This document shows, piece by piece, positions 3,291 through 32,000 of a stretch of 32,000 bases of DNA. Source of the DNA: Akkermansia muciniphila ATCC BAA-835 (lineage in GTDB: Bacteria > Verrucomicrobiota > Verrucomicrobiia > Verrucomicrobiales > Akkermansiaceae); contig NC_010655.1 of the NCBI RefSeq assembly GCF_000020225.1, positions 2,070,001 through 2,102,000 of the forward strand, read 5' to 3'. Within the stretch, counting starts at the first letter, position 1. The number at the start of each line of letters is the position of its first letter. Both the position numbers and the translations under genes were made by a program. Under the pieces are notes generated by a model that saw only the letters and a program-made list of their open reading frames with translations, was not told where the DNA came from and did no database searches.

Positions 3291-3366
3291 GTTCCCTTCT
3301 TCTAGCGGTCAGGAAGGCCGTCTCTCCAACGGCAAAGGCTCGGTTCAACTCCGGCAGGGAATGCCA
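3291..3366 (+). tRNA. tRNA-Glu(CUC)-like gene with encoded CCA (atypical C37 and C49-C65 mismatch)
   Basis: 76 nt fold by hand into a full cloverleaf. Acceptor GTTCCCT/AGGGAAT (G1-U72), U8, D-stem TTCT/GGAA with A14, GG and A21. The anticodon stem GCCGT/ACGGC is perfect, with loop C-U-CUC-C-A. T-arm is CTCGG-TTCAACT-CCGGC, then discriminator G and CCA. It lies in a 680-bp gap with no credible ORF. Confidence 0.6.
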
Positions 3367-5872: not shown

Positions 5873-6232
5873 TGGTGGAGGCGACGGGAGTCGAACCCGT
5901 GTCCTGAAGGCCATTGATGACAGCATCTCCATGTTCAGACGCATATTGCTGCTTTCGCGGCTGCTTCGCTATGCGTCAACTAGGCAAGCTCGCTAGTTGC
6001 CTGTGGAAGTCTCGTGCGTTGCGCGGCAACCCCGCATTGCACCAGCCTGCTGTGTCTTCGTCGTCCCCTCTAGCAGGCGTTGAGGTTCTGACGCGGCTGA
6101 ACTAATTAGGCAGCCAGAGCAAGGTCGTTAGACTCTGCATTTATTTTTTTAATCGGCTTTTTAGAAGGCCAGCCGATTAACCTTCACATGCAGCCAGCAC
6201 CGCAGACTTCCAGTCGAAACCATGGCGCCCCC
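5873..6232 (-). ncRNA. ssrA: tmRNA (SsrA), tag reading frame AESNDLALAA-stop at 6138..6106
   Basis: The reverse strand starts GGGGGCGCCATGGTTTCGAC and ends GGAGTCGAACCCGTCGCCTCCACCA. The acceptor GGGGGCG/CGCCTCC has the G3-U70 alanine identity pair. Internal ..AAUAAAU GCA GAG UCU AAC GAC CUU GCU CUG GCU GCC UAA gives a canonical ..ALAA degradation tag. Confidence 0.92.
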
Positions 6233-6313: not shown

Positions 6314-6390
<77 letters not shown>

Positions 6391-9112: not shown

Positions 9113-9205
9113 GGAGCGGTGGCTGAGAGGCTGAAAGCACTCCTTTGCTAAAGGAACGTACTGGCAAAACCGGTACCGAGGGTTCGAATCCCTCCCGCTC
9201 CGCCA
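9113..9205 (+). tRNA. tRNA-Ser(GCU), class II, CCA encoded
   Basis: GGAGCGGTGGCTGAGAGGCTGAAAGCACTCCTTTGCTAAAGGAAC..long variable arm..GGGTTCGAATCCCTCCCGCTCCGCCA. Very close in layout to E. coli tRNA-Ser(GCU), with anticodon loop UU-GCU-AA. Confidence 0.9.
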
Positions 9206-21196: not shown

Positions 21197-23359
21197 TTAC
21201 GGTTCAAAGGGGATGTTCAGCGCTTCATACGCCAGCATCCTGCATTGCTTGATATCCAGCTTGCCGGATGGGAGCACCGGGATGCGTTCTACGGGAATAA
21301 TCTCCTTGGGGCACCAGAGGGCCGGCAGACCCTGGTCAATCAGGCCGTGCCTGATGAGGGTTCGCGCCTGGTGCACGTAATCCGTCACCAGGGTGGTGAG
21401 CAGGGCTACGGCTTCCCCTTTTACGGGATCCGGAATGGTGACGACGGCTATCCGCCGTTCTTCGTCCGCCGGATCCAGATTCCAAATGTTCATAATGGCT
21501 GCTTCCAGGGCTTCATGAGGCACCATTTCCCCGCCTATTTTGGAAAAGCGGGAAATGCGTCCTTCAATCTTCAGGAAGCCGAATTCGTCTGCGGAACCTA
21601 TGTCTCCGGTTTTTAGCCAGCCGTCCACGAAAATATCGCGATCCGTCTCCGGACCGCCCAGATAGCCGGGAAAGATGTTCGGTCCTTTCAGCCAGATCAT
21701 GCCGGAAGTAGTGATGGGAACCACGCGTCCCGTGTGAGGGCTGGTGATGCGTATGGCGATTCCGGGAAGGAGGGCTCCTACGGAACTCTTTTTCATGCCG
21801 GGAATGAAGTCTCCGGCGGCATTGGATGGCGCCGGGTCAATGAAGTTGACGGAACAGACGGGAGAGGCTTCCGTCAGGCCGTAGCCTTCACATGGAATAA
21901 TGCCGAATTTTTCCCGGAAAGCGATGGAAAGGTCTTCCGGCAGTTTTTCCGCGCCAACGATCAGGTAGCGGACGGTTTTAAAGGTGTCCGGTTCGCAGCG
22001 TTTCATGAAACCGCGCAGGAAAGTGGGCGTGGTGACTACCAGACTGATTCCGTACTGCTTGATAAGGGCTCCCAGCCGTTTGGCCTCAAGAGGGGAGGGG
22101 TAGGTGACCATGTCGTACCCGCCGATCATCGGATACCATAGCCCGATGGTGATGCCGAAGCAGTGGAATACGGGCAGGCTTCCCAGAAACCTGTTTTGCG
22201 GTTCCAGCGTAATGCGGGAGGAACATTGAGAGATGTTGGAAAGAAGGTTATGGTGGGTCAGCGGCACGCCCTTGGGTTCCCCGGAAGAGCCGGAAGTGAA
22301 CATCAGAACGGCTTCGTCCGCGCCTGTAGGCGCGTCCAGCCCCAGTTTTTTAATCATGAACCCCGCTGTCAGGAATTTGATGGCGAGGCCCCAGCGTTTG
22401 GCGGAACCTTTAAGCAGGGGAATTTCCCGCTCCATGAGGATCAGATCCCGCTGGGGGGGCCACGGGAAATTCTGGAGCTTTCGCATGAAGGTATCCGCAG
22501 TAATAAACCAGTCCACGCCGGATTGCTTTACAGAGCTGGCAAAGGCTCCTTCCGAAGCGGAATAATTGAAATTCACCGGTGTTTTCCCGGCGAACAGGCA
22601 GCCCAGATTGGCTATGGCCGCTCCCTTGCCCGGCGGAAGAATGATGCCGACCCGGCGATTCGAGGTAATTTTTTTCAACCTCTTGGCAAAGGCTACGGAA
22701 ATGGCCAGCAGCTGGCCGTAAGTCAGCGTAGTGTCATCAATGCCGTCGATGACCCGGCAATCGGAATGAAGTTTGAGGCTGCGGAAAAGGAGGGCGGACA
22801 GGGAACCGTGGAGCTGAGGCAGCGTGGCGTATGCCTGGGCGGAACATTCCAGCCACGCGGAGGTCAGGCGTGCTGCCATCTCGGCCCCGGGGGCCAGTTT
22901 GGGGAGAATATGTATCTGGATGTCCGCCTGGGCGTCCGTATCGGCCTCCGCATCCAGCACGGAGTTCGTGTAAAAACCGGCATAGACCGGTACGGGGGAA
23001 ATATGCAGGGCTTCCAGGGCCTTGATGACCCGCGGAGGAATTTGGCTGATGGAACCTTTCACATGGGAGACGGGACCGGGCAGAAATACTACTCTTCTGC
23101 CTTCGTTAATGCGTTCCATGATGGCGGAACGCAGCGCGACAGGGTCGCTGCCTCCGGCCTGGAACAGGATGCCGTCCGCTTTAGTGGATTCCAGATGGGA
23201 GGCGGTGGCCGTATCCGGGGGGAGACCTTCTTCCACCAGGTAGGTCATGCGGTCCCTGCCCAGTTCTTTTTCGAACATCAGTAGGGTTTTATAAGATACT
23301 TTGTTGAAGATCAACAGATCACCTGAGTCGGATAAATTGGAGGAACCAAAAATGGCCAT
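21197..23359 (-). CDS. Aas-like acyl-ACP synthetase / AMP-dependent ligase with a degenerate N-terminal PlsC-like module
   Basis: The ORF track starts at a TTG (23398) and the first ATG is at 23359. Adenylation motifs are clear: FTSGSSGEPKGVPLTH, GYGLTEASPV, WLKTGDIG, GRISRFSKIGGEMV, LPSGKLD. The N-terminal ~200 aa resembles the acyltransferase half of E. coli Aas, but I cannot find HX4D (see findings). The stop is 3 nt from the xseA start, so an operon is likely. Confidence 0.85.
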   Translation of the reverse strand: MAIFGSSNLSDSGDLLIFNKVSYKTLLMFEKELGRDRMTYLVEEGLPPDTATASHLESTKADGILFQAGGSDPVALRSAIMERINEGRRVVFLPGPVSHVKGSISQIPPRVIKALEALHISPVPVYAGFYTNSVLDAEADTDAQADIQIHILPKLAPGAEMAARLTSAWLECSAQAYATLPQLHGSLSALLFRSLKLHSDCRVIDGIDDTTLTYGQLLAISVAFAKRLKKITSNRRVGIILPPGKGAAIANLGCLFAGKTPVNFNYSASEGAFASSVKQSGVDWFITADTFMRKLQNFPWPPQRDLILMEREIPLLKGSAKRWGLAIKFLTAGFMIKKLGLDAPTGADEAVLMFTSGSSGEPKGVPLTHHNLLSNISQCSSRITLEPQNRFLGSLPVFHCFGITIGLWYPMIGGYDMVTYPSPLEAKRLGALIKQYGISLVVTTPTFLRGFMKRCEPDTFKTVRYLIVGAEKLPEDLSIAFREKFGIIPCEGYGLTEASPVCSVNFIDPAPSNAAGDFIPGMKKSSVGALLPGIAIRITSPHTGRVVPITTSGMIWLKGPNIFPGYLGGPETDRDIFVDGWLKTGDIGSADEFGFLKIEGRISRFSKIGGEMVPHEALEAAIMNIWNLDPADEERRIAVVTIPDPVKGEAVALLTTLVTDYVHQARTLIRHGLIDQGLPALWCPKEIIPVERIPVLPSGKLDIKQCRMLAYEALNIPFEP

Positions 23360-23597
23360 GGGAAAAGGATAAAAAATTTGCTTGAAGCATTTTAGCAACT
23401 TGAAGAACCGGGAGCAAGGAGGAAAGGTGCATTCCCGGTTGCTTTTCCTTTATCCGGATCGGTCTCGGAAGCCTTTCCCGGCTCGGTACGTTTTTTATGG
23501 GAAGAGTATTGTTTTTCATGGGATTGTCTGGATTTGGCGTTATCTCCTGCGAAGGCGTTTCCGCAAACCAGCTGTTCCGATATTTACTTACTGATGA

Positions 23598-23846
23598 ATG
23601 GGCCTGGTGGGCAGCAACATCTTCGGACGAGAAGCGCTGGCGGAAATCCGCGTGAACGCGGCGCAGGACCTGGGAGACCGGAGGGGGGAAACGAACGTCT
23701 CTCTGCTGGGCAACCCCGGCTTTGCGCAAAGCGTGAGGGGAGCGAAAGTGGGAACGACGGCGCTGCAGCTGGGAGCCGGACTGAGCGTGCCGGTGGGAAC
23801 GAAGGGAACCATCTATGTGAACGGGAACGCGGACATCCGTGACGGG
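23598..23846 (+). repeat. 249-bp direct repeat, copy A (partner 29557..29805)
   Basis: Hand alignment at offset 5959 with no gaps and 6 mismatches, all at third codon positions. Confidence 0.95.
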
Positions 23847-23893
23847 GCTGCTCAGTAAACGGGACGTATCAGCTACTGCTACGATTTCTGGTC
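23598..23893 (+). pseudogene. 5'-deleted remnant of an autotransporter beta-barrel C-terminus (paralog of 24322..29850)
   Basis: 23598-23846 matches 29557-29805 at 243 of 249 nt. In-frame homology continues in degraded form to 23893, with a premature TAA at 23856-23858 and loss of the terminal ..YRHDF-stop (here ..YCYDFW..). No passenger domain or signal peptide lies upstream. Confidence 0.85.
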
Positions 23894-24057
23894 TTTGCTC
23901 CGAACTTGCTGCGGGCAAACAATACACCCTCTTTTTCTATGTATGAAAGGTGAAATTCACGAAAGGTGTTATTTTGCTGCATCGTTTGTTCAGGAATAGG
24001 GAAGGGATGAAAAATAATTTTTGCGTCCATTTTTATTTTCATGTGAAATGTTGCATT

Positions 24058-24074
24058 GCGGATTAGCAATCCGC
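24058..24074. promoter_or_regulatory. distal 17-bp dyad site D1 (GCGGATT-AGC-AATCCGC)
   Basis: Perfect 7-3-7 palindrome. Its reverse complement recurs at 24233-24249 (15/17 including the centre). Confidence 0.6.
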
Positions 24075-24226
24075 AGAAGCATTATCCAGAAAATAGACCA
24101 GAATCAGATATTTTTGATGTTTATAATGAAAGAGATATGGAATGTTTTTTTGAAAAAATTCTGAATTGGATATTAAGAAGATGATGATTTCCTGGTATGC
24201 AACATGCATTGGATCAATGTTAAATA

Positions 24227-24255
24227 TTGACGGCGGATTGCTAATTCGGTAATAG
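24227..24255 (+). promoter_or_regulatory. putative promoter of autotransporter 1 with proximal dyad site P1 as its spacer
   Basis: TTGACG (24227-24232), then the 17-nt GCGGATT-GCT-AATTCGG (24233-24249), then TAATAG (24250-24255), 66 nt upstream of ATG 24322. Confidence 0.5.
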
Positions 24256-24321
24256 CTATATATTGCAAACAGCCAATCAGGACGGCTGGATAGCTTTATT
24301 ATTTACCCATATTTGCAAGTT

Positions 24322-27300
24322 ATGAAGTTACGTCTACCGCTCAAGTTGTTGTCCGCCTTATTGTCGTTTTATGCCATATCCGGTTTTCATGTGTTCGCTG
24401 CTACGGAGTGGGACGGCAGCAGATATTCCGGTAATATCTATACGTGGGTAGGGAGTTCGTCCAATGATTTTCATAACGGCGGCATTGTCCTGACCAATCC
24501 GGATGGAACATACGGTCCTGTCAATACGAATTGGGGTTCCGTTTCAGAGGAGGGGAGTATTTGGAACCTTTTTGCCAATGAAACGGGACTGTCGGAATAT
24601 AACACATTGCGCTTTGTCGCATCAGGCACGGAAGTGGGCGATGTCACCGTATCGGCGACCAATAAAAATCCATCCTGCTCCTTTACGCCATTTACCATGG
24701 GGGGATTGATTGTGGAGGAAGGGGCATCAGGGTTCTCCCTTGTCCCGAACAATAATGCCCAGAGGACTCTTATACTGGGGAGAGCGGGTACGGAAGAGCC
24801 GGTATTATTTACGGTTCGTGAAGATTTTTCCCTGGGTTCTTCCTCCAATGCATGGGGCCCGGTTAATGTGAATGCAGACTGGAATGTCCTTGTGGCAAAT
24901 GGCAAGACGCTGAATGTTTACGGGGCACTGAATTCTTCCGGCCGGACCATTACGGTGGGCGGGGAAGGATTCAGCGGTACGTTGGTTTTAAACAATGCGG
25001 CCAATGCATCCATGACTGCTGAATGGGTCATCACCTCCGGCTCTACTGTAAGGTGCATGAATAATTCCGCTTTGGGAAGCGGCCTTGTTACGCTGGATGG
25101 GGGGACGCTTGATTTTAACTCGCAAACGATCGGATCAACCATTACGTTGAACATGAGCGGGACCGGGACATTGCAGAATGTGACAGTTGATGGAGCAATT
25201 TTATCTTATACGTCTTCATCGGGAAATGATGGGATTACTGCTTCAAATACCACGTGGACGTCCGGGAAGATAGATATTGGGCGTTTGTTGCAGGGATTTA
25301 GTGCCGAAGGTTCCAATACCGTTGATTTGGGAGCGGAGCTTGGCGAGGGCTTTAGCGTACTGGGTTTAGATACAGGGCAATACAGAATAGAAGGCAGCGT
25401 GCTGACGATAGAAGACGGGGCGATATCCAGCGTGACGTGGGTATCTGCGGGAGAAGGAGGGGAATTGGAAGAAACGGTCAAGAACGCCTTTACGCTGGCT
25501 CTTGGGGAGGGGAGTGCGGCCAACGTCAGCCTGGGATATCTGAACGGGACCCTGACGACCAGCGGGGACAAAGTCTATCAAATCACCAACACCGGCGGAA
25601 CCAAAATCAACCTGTCCGGAGTATACAACAGCGGGGCGACCCTGCCGTCCGGCAACCTCAACTACCAGGGGGACATCTGGATGGACATCAACGGAGGAGC
25701 ATTCGGCATCATCGCCGGAGGTGTCACCAATGAATGGGGCACCAACCTCCAGACCAGCACGCTGACTGGGGACACCCATGTGCAGCTCTCTGGAAACGCC
25801 ACGGCGGAACACGTCATCGGCGGGAACAACAAGGGAGCAAGCACTACCCTGACGGGAAACACCAACGTTACCGTCAAAGATAACGCCATCGTGGCGGGAG
25901 CCATCATCGGAGGAAGCACCTCCTCCCACAATGCCGTCACCACCATCACAGGAAACACGAGCGTCCTGGTCACCAACATCCAGCACAGCAACAGCGCGAC
26001 CGTCAACCTGGGAGACTTCGGCAACGTCACAGCCCAAAACTTCATCACGGGCGGAAGCGCGTGGACGGCCAACCAGACTTCAGGAACGACCATCCAGGGC
26101 AACACCTCGGTAACGATTAATGTAGGCGATGCGGAACTCTCCGGCACGGAAGGGCACAACAACTTCGTCAAAAACATCTATGGAGGCAGTTACGCAAACA
26201 CGAAATCCGAGGGCAACGGAGCCGTACAAAAAGTGGAAGGAAACTCAAGCGTCTCCATCAGCGGAAAAGAAGGAATCACCTTCACGGGAGACATCATGGG
26301 CGGCTCCTTCTGGAACTGGGGCAACGGCACGACGCTGACCACCAACGGAAACACCAGCGTCTCCATTGACGGAGGTTCCACCTTCACGGGCAAAATCGTG
26401 GGCGGCTCCTGGAGAGGAAGCACGTGGACGGCGGAAGATCCCACAGCCCTGCCCGTCAGCATTGGCGGCAACATCACCGTCACCCTTGGACAGGGCACCT
26501 ACCTGGGAGACATCTACGGGGCGGGCAACTGTGGCACGGTAGGAGGCGAAGTCCACGTCTCGCTGACGGGAGGAAGCATCTTTGGGGAGGAAGGAGAAGA
26601 AAGCGGCATCACCATCGGCGGAAGCGCCGGAGCGGCGGTAGAAGGAAACAGGACGCTGGAACTCAAGGGAACCTTTGGAACCGGGGACTTCCAAAACGTC
26701 ACCTTCACCCGGTTTGATGAAATCAATATCGCGCAGGAAGAAACCTCGGCCACCATCTACGCGCTGACCGACAGCCCGGCCCTGACCAAAACGGGAGCGG
26801 GAACCCTGACACTCGGGGCGGACGCGGCAGGAGCGGAAACCATCCTTGACGGAACTACGGAAGGAATCACCATCTCGGAAGGCAGCCTGAACCTCTCCGG
26901 CGCCGGCGGCAGCCATATGAAAGGAACGTGGAACATCGCCTCCGGCTCCCGTCTCACCGGAGTCAGCGGAACCGTAACCGTAGGAGAAGGAGGCCTGGAC
27001 GGACTGACCATCGCCCTGGGAACGGAAAACATCGGCCAGGACACGCAGGCGTCTGGCGCCGTCATCATCAACGGCAGCGGAACGGGAAGCGACCCGAACC
27101 TGTCCATAGAGGGGGAAGGGCTGACGCTGGACCTGAGCAACGACGCCGTCGTCAACCTTCTGCTGGACCACAAAACCGACGACTCCTCCAGCTACCTGAC
27201 CCTGACCAGCGGAACGCTGACCGTCGGCGACCTGGGCGACATCGCCTTCACTACCGACCTTCTGTCCAACTACGGCATCCGGGTCACCGGAACGGACGGA

Positions 27301-29850
27301 GGCAGCCTGGTGCTCAGCGGAGCGGCCACCGGCCTCTACCGCGTGCAGGAGGAAGGAGGAAACGCCCATGAAGTCAACTCCTATCAAACGCTCTCCGGCT
27401 ACGCCGGCGTCGTCATCGGCGGCGGCCAGACCCTGACGGTCAACCTGGCCGGAGCCCCGGGCGAATCCGACGGACAGGGAGCTAAAATCAACAACCTGAT
27501 GGGAGCCACGGGCAGCAGCCTGGTCGTCAACAACACCGGAGACGGCACGGCCGTCGTCATCCTCAACAACAAACAAATGACGACGGGAGAAGACGACATC
27601 GACCCGGCCGGCCAGGACACCGTCATGGGCGGCAGCATCACGGGAGGCAACAACGTCGCCTTCATCAAGGAAGGAACCGGGACGCTGACGGTCGGAGGAA
27701 CGATGGACGTGGAAACCCTCGCCCTGCGTGAAGGAAACATCGTCCTCAACGGCGCGTCAAACACCCTGGACACCCTCACTCTGGAAGGAGGCGGCCTGAC
27801 CATTAACGGCAACGCCGAAGTCGGAACCATCACCGGCACGGAAGCCGGAGGCTCCCTGACCATCCAGGGAACTCTCAACCTGACCGGAACAGGCGAAATA
27901 AACGACGGCTCCATCACCGGAACCGGCACCCTCCGCATCCAGGAAGGAGCGGAACTGGCCCTGGGCGGAGAAGCCCGGCTGGACGGAACCTCAGTCACCG
28001 CCGACGGCACGCTGGCCCTCTCCGGAACGGAATCCGGCGCCATCATCAGCCTCTCCGGCAGCGGCACCCTGTCCATGAACGGAGGCAGCCTCTCCATCTC
28101 CTCGGCAACAACCTCCTCCGGAACCTTCTCCGGCACGCTGGCAGGCAGCGGCACCCTGGACATCTCCGGGCAAGCCACCCAATACCTGCAAACCGGCAAT
28201 AAGGACTACGACCTCGCCGTCCGTGACGGAGGCGTCCTGGTCCTGAAAGGCACCGCGGACGCCCCCACGCTGAACTACAACAGCATCACCGCCGGAAACA
28301 ACGGCACCCTGCGTATTGAAGCCACCGGAGACGCCCAGGGCAGCGCCAACACCACGCTCAACGTGGAAAGCATCACCTTCCAGAACGGCTCCACGACGGA
28401 ACTGATCTACAACTTCAACCAGGACGCCCCCTTTGGCGCCCCCATGCTGACGGCGGATACCATCACCGTGCAGGACGGAGCCGGCTTCCTCCTCTCCAAC
28501 ATGGAAGGAAACGCCGCCATGAACGCGGGGAGCGACCTCCATGACGTCATCCTGATGAGCGCTACCGGCAGCATCAGCGGCCTGGAAGACGGGCAAAGCC
28601 TCGCCGCCCGGATATCCGGCCTCTTCGCCGTCTACTACCAGGACGCCACGCTGAACCGCGACGGAAACGACATCCTGCTCAATGCCACACTCCGGCAGGA
28701 AAACCTCTTCGCCTCCGCGGCCGACACGTGGAACTCCGCCGCCGGAGCCAGCCTGCTCTGGGAAGCCCGCAAAAACCTGGACCCCGACTCCCAGCTGGCC
28801 CAATTCATGAACGGCGTCAGCACCATGATCAATGACGGCAACCTCTCCGGAGCCACCCGCGCTATGGCGGCGGCAGCTGGGAGCACGGTCAACGCGCTGG
28901 GGACGGCGCAGAGGGACGCCCTGCGCGACCAGATGGGCTGGATCAGGAACCGGACCACCCTCATGGGCGTCAACCCGGCCTACGTCAACGACGACCTCCC
29001 CCGCTTCCACATGTGGATGGAAGGCACGGGCTCCTACGCCAAACTGGACACCCGCGGGGATGAAAGCGGCTACCAGCTCACCACCTGGGGAGGTACGGTA
29101 GGCGTGGACGCGGACCTCAGCGACCGCCTCACAGTGGGAGCGGCCTTCACGGCCAGCTACGGCGACCTGACGGCCGGCGCGGCGGACAGCGCCGACGGGC
29201 ACCTGGACAGCTACTACGCCAGCCTCTTCGGCCGCTACCAGGACAGGCGCTGGGCGCACACGCTCATCCTGACGGGAGGGTGGAACGACGCGAAACTCAA
29301 CCGTACGGTCAACTACGGGGAAGGAAGCTACGGGACGCAGGGAAGCACCAGCGGGTGGGGCTTTGGAGCGATGTATGAACTCACCTACGACGTATACCTC
29401 AACGAAAACCGCAGCAGCGTGCTGCAGCCGCTGTTCAACGCCTCGGTGGTGACGACGCGGATGGACGGCTATGAGGAAACGGGTGCGGGCAACGCGGGCC
29501 TGAACGTCGGCAGGCAGGACTGGACGACGGGGACGCTGGCGCTGGGCGGCCGGTGGATGGGCCTGGTGGGCAGCAACATCTTCGGACGAGAAGCGCTGGC
29601 GGAAATCCGAGTAAACGCGGCGCAGGACCTGGGAGACCGGAGAGGGGAAACGAACGTCTCTCTGCTGGGCAACCCCGGCTTCGCGCAAAGCGTGAGGGGG
29701 GCGAAAGTGGGAACGACGGCGCTGCAGCTGGGAGCCGGACTGAGCGTGCCGGTGGGAACGAAGGGAACCATCTACGTGAACGGGAACGCGGACATCCGTG
29801 ACGGGTCCAGCGCGCTGAACGGAAGCATCGGCTACCGCCACGACTTCTAA
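24322..29850 (+). CDS. giant autotransporter (type Va) surface protein: signal peptide, ~1500-aa beta-helical passenger with PATR-type repeats, C-terminal 12-strand beta-barrel
   Basis: The ORF track begins at TTG 24313. ATG 24322 gives MKLRLPLKLLSALLSFYAISGFHVFA/ATEW, parallel to the paralog at 30318. The passenger is G/T/N/S-rich with ..LTKTGAGTLTLG.., ..FIKEGTGTLTVGG.. and repeated GNTSVxI coils. The beta-domain runs from about 28990 (FHMWMEGTGSYAKLD..GYQLTTWGGTVGVD..) to the terminal ..GSIGYRHDF (aromatic C-terminus). Confidence 0.92.
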   Translation: MKLRLPLKLLSALLSFYAISGFHVFAATEWDGSRYSGNIYTWVGSSSNDFHNGGIVLTNPDGTYGPVNTNWGSVSEEGSIWNLFANETGLSEYNTLRFVASGTEVGDVTVSATNKNPSCSFTPFTMGGLIVEEGASGFSLVPNNNAQRTLILGRAGTEEPVLFTVREDFSLGSSSNAWGPVNVNADWNVLVANGKTLNVYGALNSSGRTITVGGEGFSGTLVLNNAANASMTAEWVITSGSTVRCMNNSALGSGLVTLDGGTLDFNSQTIGSTITLNMSGTGTLQNVTVDGAILSYTSSSGNDGITASNTTWTSGKIDIGRLLQGFSAEGSNTVDLGAELGEGFSVLGLDTGQYRIEGSVLTIEDGAISSVTWVSAGEGGELEETVKNAFTLALGEGSAANVSLGYLNGTLTTSGDKVYQITNTGGTKINLSGVYNSGATLPSGNLNYQGDIWMDINGGAFGIIAGGVTNEWGTNLQTSTLTGDTHVQLSGNATAEHVIGGNNKGASTTLTGNTNVTVKDNAIVAGAIIGGSTSSHNAVTTITGNTSVLVTNIQHSNSATVNLGDFGNVTAQNFITGGSAWTANQTSGTTIQGNTSVTINVGDAELSGTEGHNNFVKNIYGGSYANTKSEGNGAVQKVEGNSSVSISGKEGITFTGDIMGGSFWNWGNGTTLTTNGNTSVSIDGGSTFTGKIVGGSWRGSTWTAEDPTALPVSIGGNITVTLGQGTYLGDIYGAGNCGTVGGEVHVSLTGGSIFGEEGEESGITIGGSAGAAVEGNRTLELKGTFGTGDFQNVTFTRFDEINIAQEETSATIYALTDSPALTKTGAGTLTLGADAAGAETILDGTTEGITISEGSLNLSGAGGSHMKGTWNIASGSRLTGVSGTVTVGEGGLDGLTIALGTENIGQDTQASGAVIINGSGTGSDPNLSIEGEGLTLDLSNDAVVNLLLDHKTDDSSSYLTLTSGTLTVGDLGDIAFTTDLLSNYGIRVTGTDGGSLVLSGAATGLYRVQEEGGNAHEVNSYQTLSGYAGVVIGGGQTLTVNLAGAPGESDGQGAKINNLMGATGSSLVVNNTGDGTAVVILNNKQMTTGEDDIDPAGQDTVMGGSITGGNNVAFIKEGTGTLTVGGTMDVETLALREGNIVLNGASNTLDTLTLEGGGLTINGNAEVGTITGTEAGGSLTIQGTLNLTGTGEINDGSITGTGTLRIQEGAELALGGEARLDGTSVTADGTLALSGTESGAIISLSGSGTLSMNGGSLSISSATTSSGTFSGTLAGSGTLDISGQATQYLQTGNKDYDLAVRDGGVLVLKGTADAPTLNYNSITAGNNGTLRIEATGDAQGSANTTLNVESITFQNGSTTELIYNFNQDAPFGAPMLTADTITVQDGAGFLLSNMEGNAAMNAGSDLHDVILMSATGSISGLEDGQSLAARISGLFAVYYQDATLNRDGNDILLNATLRQENLFASAADTWNSAAGASLLWEARKNLDPDSQLAQFMNGVSTMINDGNLSGATRAMAAAAGSTVNALGTAQRDALRDQMGWIRNRTTLMGVNPAYVNDDLPRFHMWMEGTGSYAKLDTRGDESGYQLTTWGGTVGVDADLSDRLTVGAAFTASYGDLTAGAADSADGHLDSYYASLFGRYQDRRWAHTLILTGGWNDAKLNRTVNYGEGSYGTQGSTSGWGFGAMYELTYDVYLNENRSSVLQPLFNASVVTTRMDGYEETGAGNAGLNVGRQDWTTGTLALGGRWMGLVGSNIFGREALAEIRVNAAQDLGDRRGETNVSLLGNPGFAQSVRGAKVGTTALQLGAGLSVPVGTKGTIYVNGNADIRDGSSALNGSIGYRHDF
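29557..29805 (+). repeat. 249-bp direct repeat, copy B (partner 23598..23846)
   Basis: See copy A. It lies inside the beta-barrel coding region of the intact gene. Confidence 0.95.
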
Positions 29851-29910
29851 CAAGAAAGAAAACACAAGGAGAGGCCCCCCACCCCCGAAAGGCCTTCCTC
29901 CTGACCCTCC

Positions 29911-29943
29911 AGAGCCGTTCCGGAATTATTCCGGAACGGCTCT
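29911..29943 (+). terminator. terminator hairpin after autotransporter 1
   Basis: A 33-nt near-perfect palindrome AGAGCCGTTCCGGAAT-T-ATTCCGGAACGGCTCT, 60 nt after the stop. The downstream T-run is weak (GTTGCTT). Confidence 0.6.
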
Positions 29944-30057
29944 GTTGCTTAGGGGAATCCCGCTAAGCCGATACGGTGCGGGGAGGTAGTTTTTACAATA
30001 TATTGGAATGATTTTTATTAAAATAGTTTTTTCACCGCAGTCGCTTGAATTCGTAAA

Positions 30058-30074
30058 GCGGATTAAAAATTCGC
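30058..30074. promoter_or_regulatory. distal 17-bp dyad site D2 (GCGGATT-AAA-AATTCGC)
   Basis: Same motif as D1. Its reverse complement recurs at 30237-30253 (15/17 including the centre). Confidence 0.6.
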
Positions 30075-30230
30075 CGTGTAATGGGAACCGGGCCAATATA
30101 CCAGAGTTGCCCCGCCTGTTTGCTTATACTGATAAGGATAGAACGATGGATGCCCCTGATTCCAGACCAGATAAAGCATGGAAATACTCTTCTGGATGAT
30201 GCGCAACACCTACGGAATCAATGTTTAAGC

Positions 30231-30259
30231 TTGTAGGAGGATTTTTAATCCGCTAATGA
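30231..30259 (+). promoter_or_regulatory. putative promoter of autotransporter 2 with proximal dyad site P2 as its spacer
   Basis: TTGTAG (30231-30236), then the 17-nt GAGGATT-TTT-AATCCGC (30237-30253), then TAATGA (30254-30259), 58 nt upstream of ATG 30318. The geometry is the same as at 24227-24255. Confidence 0.5.
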
Positions 30260-30317
30260 TGGTAAAAAGCCTCCTGTCAGTTTTGGGAGGAATTTCACGT
30301 ACGCCCTTTTAAAAACT

Positions 30318-32000
30318 ATGAAGTTGCACCTCCCTTTAAGTCTTTTGTCCTCCCTGCTTGCCTGCATGGCTGCTGTTTCCTCACCGCATGCCGTTGCGGA
30401 AACCTATACATGGCTGGGGGGGACGGTGGATGTTCATTTAAATACTAACTGGACTCCGGATTACGGCAGCAGCAACTGGTCGGCAACATGGGCCGGAACG
30501 GCGACAAACAGCATGCGTTTTGATGCGGGTAGCATGACGGGGCAGGTCAAGGCTCTCCAGGCTTCTTTCAATACGCTTTCACTTGGGGGAATAACCGTTA
30601 CGGATAATTCCGATGGATTCAGCGTTTCCAAAAGCAACGGCTCCAACCGCACCGTTAATTTACGTGATGGAGGAGAAGGGTATACGCTGTTTGACATAGG
30701 CGGGGATTTTTCTCTGGGAGTTGCCAGCCAGGTATGGAACGGAGTTGTTTTCAACTCCAGCGCCCTGTTTAACATTGCCTCCGGCAAGACCATGAATATT
30801 TACGGTGGTCTGGGAATGGCTGGAACGGGAGCCAGGACGATGACGGTGGGGACGGACGGTTTTGCGGGAACCCTTATCCTGAATACGGCTGCCCAGTCTT
30901 CCATGACGGCTGATTGGGTCATTTCCCATGGGGCGACCGTTCAACTGAACAATGCCGCGGCTTTGGGGTCCGGATCGGTCAGCTTAAACGGCGGCAATAT
31001 AACGGCCCAGCACGATGCTGTTTATAACAATGCCCTGGCCGTGAGCGGTTCTTCCGGCATGAACGTGAATGCTGCCACGCGGTTTGCCAGTGTCAGCCTT
31101 TCCAATGCCGCTGTCCTGAACATGAACGGAGGGACGCTTGGCATTGCGAATGCCGGCGTTTTGACACTGGGTTCTTCAGGGACCATTACGGGGAATTTGA
31201 CGCTGGGAAACACGTCTCTCCTGAATTTTTCCGCTCTTCCGGCTTCCGGATCATATTTGCTTAATGTAACAGGAACGCTGACCGTGGGCAGTGAATTGCT
31301 TCTGGGGCAGGAAACGATGGAAGGCGTAGCCTGGACGGAGGGTTCCTACAGTCTGGTTCATGCGGGTTCCGTAGAGGGAGTCCCTGCCAGCTCTTTCGTT
31401 CTGGGCGACAATCTTCTGGGTTCATGGAGCACGGAAAACAATAATCTTACCCTGGTTGTGGAGCAGGTGGCTTTGCTTGAATGGAAAGGCGGCGACGGGA
31501 TATGGTCTGTAACTGCTCCGGCTTCTTCACCGTGGAAAAATGAAGGTGTGTACAATAATGCTTCCGGAGTGGTCATGGGAGATATTGACGGAAGTTCTCT
31601 GCAAACAGTAACCATTGATGGAGTTGTCTCTCCCTCAATCATGATGGTCCAGGCGGATACGACGGATTATGTGTGGAATGCCGCAGATGAAGGAGGTGCT
31701 CTGGAAGGCAGCGGTAATCTGGAGAAGACCGGCAGTGCCAAGCTGACCATTAATATGGATAATGCTGATTATGCCGGAAAGGTCATTTTGGGGGGTGGAA
31801 CGCTTGAAATGGGGAATGATGCCGCTTTAGGCACAGGTGATCTGGCATTTGACGGCGGTACCCTCCGGTATGGAACAGGGGTAACGGCGGATATTTCCGG
31901 GCAGATTTCCACAACGAGCAAAAGTTCCGTGAAGGTGGATACCAACGGTAATAACGTAAGCTGGGCTTCCGCGGATCATTACAAGGCTCTGAACTTGGAA
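30318..32000 (+). CDS. autotransporter-family surface protein paralog, 3'-truncated by the window edge
   Basis: Absent from the ORF track. It is open from ATG 30318 to base 32000 (561 codons): MKLHLPLSLLSSLLACMAAVSSPHAVA/ETYTWLGG.. Homology to gene 1: TLILNTAAQSSMTADWVISHGATVQLNNAAALGSGSVSLNGG versus TLVLNNAANASMTAEWVITSGSTVRCMNNSALGSGLVTLDGG. PATR motif: LEKTGSAKLTI..GKVILGGGTLEMGNDAALGTG. Confidence 0.88.
   Translation, partial: MKLHLPLSLLSSLLACMAAVSSPHAVAETYTWLGGTVDVHLNTNWTPDYGSSNWSATWAGTATNSMRFDAGSMTGQVKALQASFNTLSLGGITVTDNSDGFSVSKSNGSNRTVNLRDGGEGYTLFDIGGDFSLGVASQVWNGVVFNSSALFNIASGKTMNIYGGLGMAGTGARTMTVGTDGFAGTLILNTAAQSSMTADWVISHGATVQLNNAAALGSGSVSLNGGNITAQHDAVYNNALAVSGSSGMNVNAATRFASVSLSNAAVLNMNGGTLGIANAGVLTLGSSGTITGNLTLGNTSLLNFSALPASGSYLLNVTGTLTVGSELLLGQETMEGVAWTEGSYSLVHAGSVEGVPASSFVLGDNLLGSWSTENNNLTLVVEQVALLEWKGGDGIWSVTAPASSPWKNEGVYNNASGVVMGDIDGSSLQTVTIDGVVSPSIMMVQADTTDYVWNAADEGGALEGSGNLEKTGSAKLTINMDNADYAGKVILGGGTLEMGNDAALGTGDLAFDGGTLRYGTGVTADISGQISTTSKSSVKVDTNGNNVSWASADHYKALNLE

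Follow-up and report, generated by a model that had tools for sequence, protein, structure and literature searches.

A phase-variation inverton of Akkermansia muciniphila upstream of an autotransporter gene, with a predicted split promoter

Introduction

Upstream of the gene for a large autotransporter of Akkermansia muciniphila lie two dyad-symmetric sites of 17 bp in inverted orientation, one of which fills the interval between a -35-like and a -10-like hexamer. The question raised by this locus is whether the two are recombination sites that bound an invertible promoter element or operators for a repressor. How A. muciniphila, a probiotic in development, colonises the gut depends on its surface proteins and its capsule. 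The original prediction, made on the whole stretch of 32,000 nucleotides from strain ATCC BAA-835 that was analysed (the window), preferred the invertible promoter. The locus is very probably a phase-variation inverton of A. muciniphila, with a recombinase acting in trans and a split promoter. This switch (switch 1) is predicted to turn an autotransporter of 1842 residues on and off, and a neighbouring switch is predicted to do the same for the next autotransporter.

Published status of the locus

The autotransporter 1 protein is identical in several A. muciniphila genomes of 2.664 Mb, and its gene starts at 2092358 in CP042830.1. With the coordinate offset taken from that genome, the repeats of switch 1 fall within 1 bp of the published inverton A-mu-ATCC-BAA-835__0:2092093-2092109-2092267-2092283, and both have a 16/158/16 layout. 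The report of this inverton (PMC11892184) places it near two autotransporter-domain proteins and describes it as shifting, in the course of five generations of mice, from almost entirely reverse to predominantly forward. The same report places 32 A. muciniphila invertons in a single repeat group, ‘group 138’, one that agrees with the motif of Jiang et al. 2019. This Akkermansia motif, CGGATT..AATCCG, is quoted in a paper of 2026 on the capsule switch cps1 (PMC13343947). The distal repeat of switch 1 contains an exact match to it (CGGATTAGCAATCCG) and the proximal repeat a match with one mismatch (CGGATTGCTAATTCG). A long-read survey gives 5.55 intergenic invertons per Akkermansia genome (PMC10028968).

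Since both the published locus and the motif match, the switch is correctly read and already known, as a class and as a locus, and is not a discovery. It shares organism, motif, size class and surface-protein neighbours with the Akkermansia CGGATT..AATCCG invertons (Jiang 2019, group 138 and the cps1 inverton) and does not differ from them in kind, and it adds no new biology. What may be useful beyond the known is the evidence for a split promoter across the family and the strict pairing of core triplets between partner sites. Neither the use of the repeat as the -35/-10 spacer with the -10 outside nor the co-variation of the 3-bp core between partners is described in the inverton literature searched, the text of Jiang 2019 excepted.

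Organisation of switch 1

The distal inverted repeat D1 (GCGGATTAGCAATCCGC, that is GCGGATT-AGC-AATCCGC) occupies positions 24058–24074, and the proximal inverted repeat P1 (GCGGATTGCTAATTCGG, GCGGATT-GCT-AATTCGG) occupies positions 24233–24249. Both are recombination sites without an assigned strand, and P1 is also the 17-bp spacer of the putative promoter. They enclose the invertible segment (24075–24232, likewise without strand), which is 158 bp long and AT-rich, with a GC content of 0.35. In the window orientation the segment carries at its gene-proximal end the putative -35 hexamer TTGACG (24227–24232, plus strand), which abuts the inner edge of P1 and moves with the segment. The putative -10 hexamer TAATAG (24250–24255, plus strand) abuts the outer edge of P1 and is fixed, being outside the invertible segment. 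It is followed after 66 nt by the ATG of the autotransporter 1 gene (24322–29850, plus strand), a start on which the gene callers of public genomes agree. The 1842-residue product has a signal peptide and a C-terminal PF03797 autotransporter beta-domain.

Direct reading of the sequence confirmed every coordinate that the original prediction had given for D1, P1, the two hexamers and the spacing to the ATG. A repeat finder recovered the inverted pair around the AT-rich segment, giving it arms of 16 nt that are 94% complementary and 158 nt apart. Four copies of the motif GCGGATTNNNAATCCGC, with two mismatches at most, are present in the window, where chance would give 0.29, and none of 100 shuffles reached four.

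The block ATCAATGTT lies about 5 nt upstream of the -35 (24213–24221 in switch 1, 30219–30227 in the sibling switch described below). It is conserved in both switches of the window and in an orthologue of the locus from a related Akkermansiaceae species (L098), and might serve as an UP-like element or be bound by an accessory factor. A 9-nt perfect inverted repeat (ATGTTGCAT/ATGCAACAT, 24048–24056 and 24197–24205) was considered and put down to chance, with about 0.6 such pairs estimated per 551 bp; its right arm is not conserved in the same orthologue. An Rfam scan of 23000–31000 gave chance-level matches only.

Directly upstream of the switch, and outside it, an 86-residue ORF (23598–23858, plus strand) shows a weak PF03797 match. 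It has almost the same sequence as the C-terminal end of autotransporter 1 (…TIYVNGNADIRDG…) and is the remnant of a third autotransporter copy. Many public genomes annotate the ORF as a gene, and 1028 blocks of the sequence collection list it.

The sibling switch

The original prediction had proposed a search for further pairs of the motif. Such a pair is found within the window itself, upstream of autotransporter 2, and a further 33 pairs were found in Akkermansiaceae among the matches listed. The distal repeat of the window pair, D2 (GCGGATTAAAAATTCGC, GCGGATT-AAA-AATTCGC), was located by motif search at 30058–30074, and the proximal repeat P2 (GAGGATTTTTAATCCGC, GAGGATT-TTT-AATCCGC), which also forms the spacer, at 30237–30253. 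Between them lies an invertible segment of 162 bp (30075–30236) that ends in the -35-like hexamer TTGTAG (30231–30236); strand is assigned neither to the repeats nor to the segment. The -10-like hexamer TAATGA (30254–30259) comes directly after P2, and the ATG of autotransporter 2 is at 30319.

The geometry, TTGTAG-17-TAATGA, is the same as in switch 1, and the cores AAA and TTT are likewise inverted with respect to each other; the -35 of the sibling is weak. When the upstream regions of the two autotransporter genes are aligned, conservation is highest at the sites, in block ATCAATGTT and at the TTG..G and TAAT elements.

Strains differ in the tandem autotransporter array. L130 (FXYB01000046.1) and L138 (ERZ28760693) lack autotransporter 2 and have other genes at its place, and L136 has a shorter form of it (1146 residues). 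In L137 and L140 the coding sequence of autotransporter 1 is broken into two ORFs, and L140 is also a genome with the switch flipped (predicted OFF). These differences in L130, L136, L137, L138 and L140 could be real pseudogenisation or sequencing errors.

Inversion in natural sequences

The orientation of the segment was followed in public sequences. A metagenome collection was searched for a junction specific to the inverted state, consisting of the left flank, the site and CGTCAA. This inverted-state junction was found on four metagenome contigs (L121–L124), in which, by BLAST, the flanks align collinearly with the window as far as 24074 and again from 24233, and 24059–24248 is reversed at 97–98% identity. 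Complete genomes and long contigs were gathered by exact match to the autotransporter 1 protein and the small upstream ORF. Switch 1 is flipped in the complete A. muciniphila genomes CP024740.1 and CP024738.1, and it has the window orientation in 13 other records. The predicted invertibility is thus borne out by six independent public sequences in which the segment is inverted between unchanged flanks (97–100% identity across L121–L124, L131/L139 and L140), as well as by the read-supported inverton described in PMC11892184. The inversion of the segment and its end points are matters of direct observation, as is the family-wide sequence pattern described below.

Inversion had also been expected to replace the -35 by GCTTCT, and the inverted alleles indeed read GCTTCT-GCGGATTGCTAATTCGG-TAATAG, in which TAATAG is unchanged. 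The outer half of D1 (GCGGATT) and that of P1 (AATTCGG) are not moved by the inversion, and D1 is unchanged in the natural inverted alleles.

The sibling segment is inverted in a metagenome contig of 2.87 Mb (L136, ERZ28753682 contig_9275), in which the flanks are collinear up to 30070 and from 30241. Differences between partner sites in the outer half-sites of switch 1 stay in place in the flipped alleles, while those in the inner half-sites of switch 2 travel with the segment in its flipped allele, and the crossover must therefore take place within positions 5–13 of the 17-bp site.

The repeats are palindromic and part of the contigs come from short-read assemblies, and apparent inversions might on these grounds be ascribed to assembly artefacts caused by short palindromic repeats. 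However, repeats of 16–17 bp are shorter than typical assembly k-mers, the break points are identical in every case, and inverted alleles are present in finished isolate genomes and in megabase-sized long-read contigs. Moreover, evidence at the level of reads has been published (PMC11892184), and the probability of an artefact is negligible.

The Akkermansiaceae family of switches

A paired-site scan of one genome per species returned at least 120 loci, with the A. muciniphila type genome not among the matches listed. The family counts are based on the 31 Akkermansiaceae loci, with 33 site pairs, among these matches. They include the orthologue of switch 1 (L098), which is 91.6% identical, has the same sites in the same orientation and has an identical D1.

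In all 33 Akkermansiaceae pairs among the matches listed, the 3-bp cores of the two partners are reverse-complementary, and 15 distinct cores occur. Since the core varies among the switches and yet matches that of the partner, it behaves like a strand-exchange region and not like a protein-recognition element.

This pairing bears on the operator alternative, in which a homodimeric repressor bound to D1 and P1 would form a DNA loop and cover the promoter spacer without any rearrangement. Each site is dyad-symmetric, as an operator would be, and P1 lies between the -35 and the -10, where a bound protein would block RNA polymerase. A repressor, however, needs no reverse-complementary cores, which are found in 33 of 33 pairs with 15 different cores among the matches listed, and the segment is physically inverted in the six public sequences and in the read data published in PMC11892184. 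The existence of inverted alleles removes operators as the sole explanation, and the alternative is highly improbable. Repression could occur as a side effect of the recombinase sitting on P1.

The hexamers of switch 1 recur in the family at the corresponding places. Among the pairs listed, TTGnnn abuts the inner edge of the site at zero offset in 28 of 66 ends, against 0–4 at other offsets, and for TTGACn the corresponding counts are 25 of 66 against 0–2. At the outer edge, TA is found at zero offset in 30 of the 66 ends of the pairs listed, compared with 3–7 at other offsets. Exactly one inner TTG together with one outer TA is present in 22 of the 33 switches among the matches listed, while about a third of these listed switches have no clean pattern of one -35 and one -10 at zero offset. 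Where a single TTG is flush with the site, it stands beside the TA end in ten of the listed switches, and in 13 TA is found only at the opposite end. Of two orthologous loci, L059 and L060, one shows the first state and the other the reverse. The form TAATnn recurs at seven loci (L003, L038, L059, L098, L101, L106 and L115). Genes reading outward, most of which encode a signal peptide at their start, begin 5–130 nt after the TA ends at the loci among the matches listed.

An Akkermansiaceae metagenome-assembled genome, MAG U.3_4 (L041, L046, L048, L054, L065, L070, L082 and L113), has at least nine near-identical switches, which share one core, TTG/CAA. Since the cores are identical, recombination between different switches would in principle be allowed. 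In some of the switches -10-like TA elements stand outside both repeats, and these switches may possibly work as two-way toggles. The L054 contig of this genome (2.9 kb) has two switches and a coverage three times that of the others.

The proposed split promoter

In the proposed promoter, the proximal site would split the two recognition elements, with the -35 TTGACG carried on the invertible segment, the 17-bp site serving as the spacer and TAATAG fixed outside. In the window orientation the two halves would be joined and the gene would be ON. After inversion GCTTCT would take the place of the -35 and the gene would be OFF, while the relocated -35 would face no -10. We infer promoter activity and the assignment of ON and OFF from the arrangement of these elements, and by the same reasoning both switches of the window would be ON.

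Where a -10 would be expected, the outer flank of D1 has AATGCA, which is not -10-like. A leftward promoter in the flipped switch was for this reason rejected, and with no -10 on the far side switch 1 is expected to be a simple ON/OFF switch.

The spacing of TTGACG-17-TAATAG is similar to that of the tRNA promoters in the window, for which the original prediction had given the form TTGACT/TTGAAT-N16/17-TAnnnT. Three such promoters were found, TTGAAT-16-TAGAGT, TTGACT-17-TAGTCT and TTGACT-16-TATATT. The first third of the window contains four tRNA genes (1701–1784, 3291–3366, 6314–6390 on the minus strand, and 9113–9205), three of them with clear promoters, and a tmRNA gene (5873–6232, minus strand) with the tag AESNDLALAA.

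TAATAG is without the final T usual for a -10, and a simple sigma-70 scan did not call TTGACG-17-TAATAG, because the scan requires a T at the last position of the -10. The imperfect -10 and the silence of the consensus scan speak for another way of action, in which the inversion is real and works through a complete promoter or a terminator inside the segment, or through read-through from upstream. A promoter motif inside the inverton has been described in published analyses (PMC11892184), and the conservation of the block ATCAATGTT beside the -35 in both switches of the window also agrees with this view. On the other hand, the enrichment of TTGACn at the inner edge and of TA at the outer edge across the 33 switches among the matches listed is hard to explain otherwise than by a split promoter. 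The two elements are joined in half of the assemblies and apart in the other half, and no terminator-like hairpin was found on either strand in 23800–24400. Action by means other than the split hexamers is unlikely on balance. The split promoter remains the preferred reading, and from these sequence patterns it is concluded that the Akkermansiaceae family probably uses it throughout, with a mobile -35, the repeat as the spacer and a fixed -10 beside the regulated gene.

Recombination sites and the presumed recombinase

The mechanism proposed for the inversion involves a site-specific recombinase encoded outside the window, which would recognise both dyad-symmetric 17-bp sites, pair them, exchange strands in their central part (positions 5–13) and thereby flip the segment of about 160 bp. 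The 3-bp core, which differs from switch to switch, would have to match that of the partner, as expected of a region of strand exchange.

A core of odd length can never be palindromic, and each site is therefore directional. Moreover, the dyad axis passes through a base pair, so that symmetric cuts leave a stagger of odd length. Some tyrosine recombinases use a 7-bp overlap, while serine invertases make a 2-bp stagger. Judged by geometry, a tyrosine recombinase with a 7-bp overlap (TT-NNN-AA) appears to fit better than a serine invertase with its 2-bp stagger. Such an overlap is consistent with the crossover window at positions 5–13 and with the matching of cores in 33 of 33 pairs among those listed.

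The original prediction that the window encodes no recombinase was upheld by Pfam analysis of the window ORFs, which gave RecQ, SucCD, HisD and others and no recombinase domain, and by the public gene calls. No recombinase was found within about 4 kb of the 31 Akkermansiaceae switch loci among the matches listed. Clustering of the ORFs at these 31 listed loci gave an autotransporter cluster only, and crude screens for serine and tyrosine catalytic motifs at the same 31 loci gave nothing credible. A recombinase acting on these switches is not named in the literature searched. The natural reading is that one trans-acting enzyme serves all the sites.

Comparison with other invertible systems

The E. 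coli fimS switch, acted on by FimB and FimE, resembles switch 1 in that a short segment bounded by short inverted repeats toggles the gene of a surface structure. Its recombinases are tyrosine recombinases, the class suggested above for switch 1; invertons of this type have an overlap region of 6–8 bp in which the two partners must agree. In fimS the whole promoter lies inside an element of 314 bp and the recombinase genes are adjacent. Switch 1, unlike fimS, would have only its -35 on the invertible segment and would use the repeat as the spacer; no recombinase gene was found nearby, and one motif is shared by 30 or more loci.

The capsule promoter invertons of Bacteroides fragilis, which are turned over by the global invertase Mpi, are similar to the Akkermansia switches in being dispersed, in sharing one motif, in their location at loci for surface molecules and in belonging to a gut commensal. 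The Akkermansia switches are presumably also served by a recombinase in trans. The two systems differ in phylum, in repeat motif and in the type of promoter. Mpi is a serine recombinase, and the B. fragilis capsule promoters lie wholly within the element.

The original prediction had likened the sites to those of DNA invertases such as hix. The likeness is no more than an analogy: as in Hin/hix and Gin/gix, two inverted half-sites surround an asymmetric centre and the two sites are in inverted orientation, but the odd length and the 3-bp core do not fit the hix layout. The hix site is 26 bp long with a 2-bp central crossover, requires an enhancer and Fis, and has its invertase encoded inside the element. 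Switch 1, unlike hix and gix, has a site of 17 bp with an odd 3-bp core and a dyad axis through a base pair, and a segment of about 160 bp without a gene. A search of the window and of the surroundings of the 31 related loci among the matches listed gave no Resolvase-type domain or motif.

The hybrid promoters of insertion sequences, in which an outward -35 is combined with a resident -10, are similar to the promoter proposed for switch 1 in that a mobile -35 joins a fixed -10 through a rearrangement. They arise by transposition and are not programmed reversible switches.

A further possibility is that the invertible promoters of Akkermansiaceae are a class with an architecture of their own. 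In such a class the site would be the 17-bp spacer, only the -35 would move and the -10 would be fixed. The odd 3-bp core would act as a code for direction and matching at each locus, and all the members would be served by a single trans recombinase, probably one of the tyrosine class with a 7-bp overlap. In members with -10-like elements on both sides, one -35 might toggle between two genes. The proposal taken as a whole is a tentative one, in which doubt outweighs confidence. Should it be true and undescribed, it would refine how 30 or more switches per genome work, and it would tell where the -10 and the regulated gene are to be sought.

Matches outside Akkermansiaceae

About three quarters of the at least 120 paired-site loci are outside Akkermansiaceae (Bacteroidota, Chloroflexota and others). 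An invertase shared across phyla was considered for these matches and rejected; most of them consist instead of a hairpin-containing unit repeated in tandem, with cores that are direct or unrelated, and have no relation to the switch. Arrays of tRNA genes were rejected as their identity, ARAGORN having found no tRNA in 15 loci, and no Rfam family was found for the hairpin arrays. The arrays are seen at L013 (6096–7140), L111 (596–892), L102, L026, L092 and about 85 other non-Akkermansia loci among the matches listed, with periods of 45, 89 and 167–180 nt. The hairpin of the repeated unit, GCGGATT-NNN-AATCCGC with a centre that is often TGC or GCA, has the shape of an anticodon arm, with a stem of 5 bp and the loop TTNNNAA.
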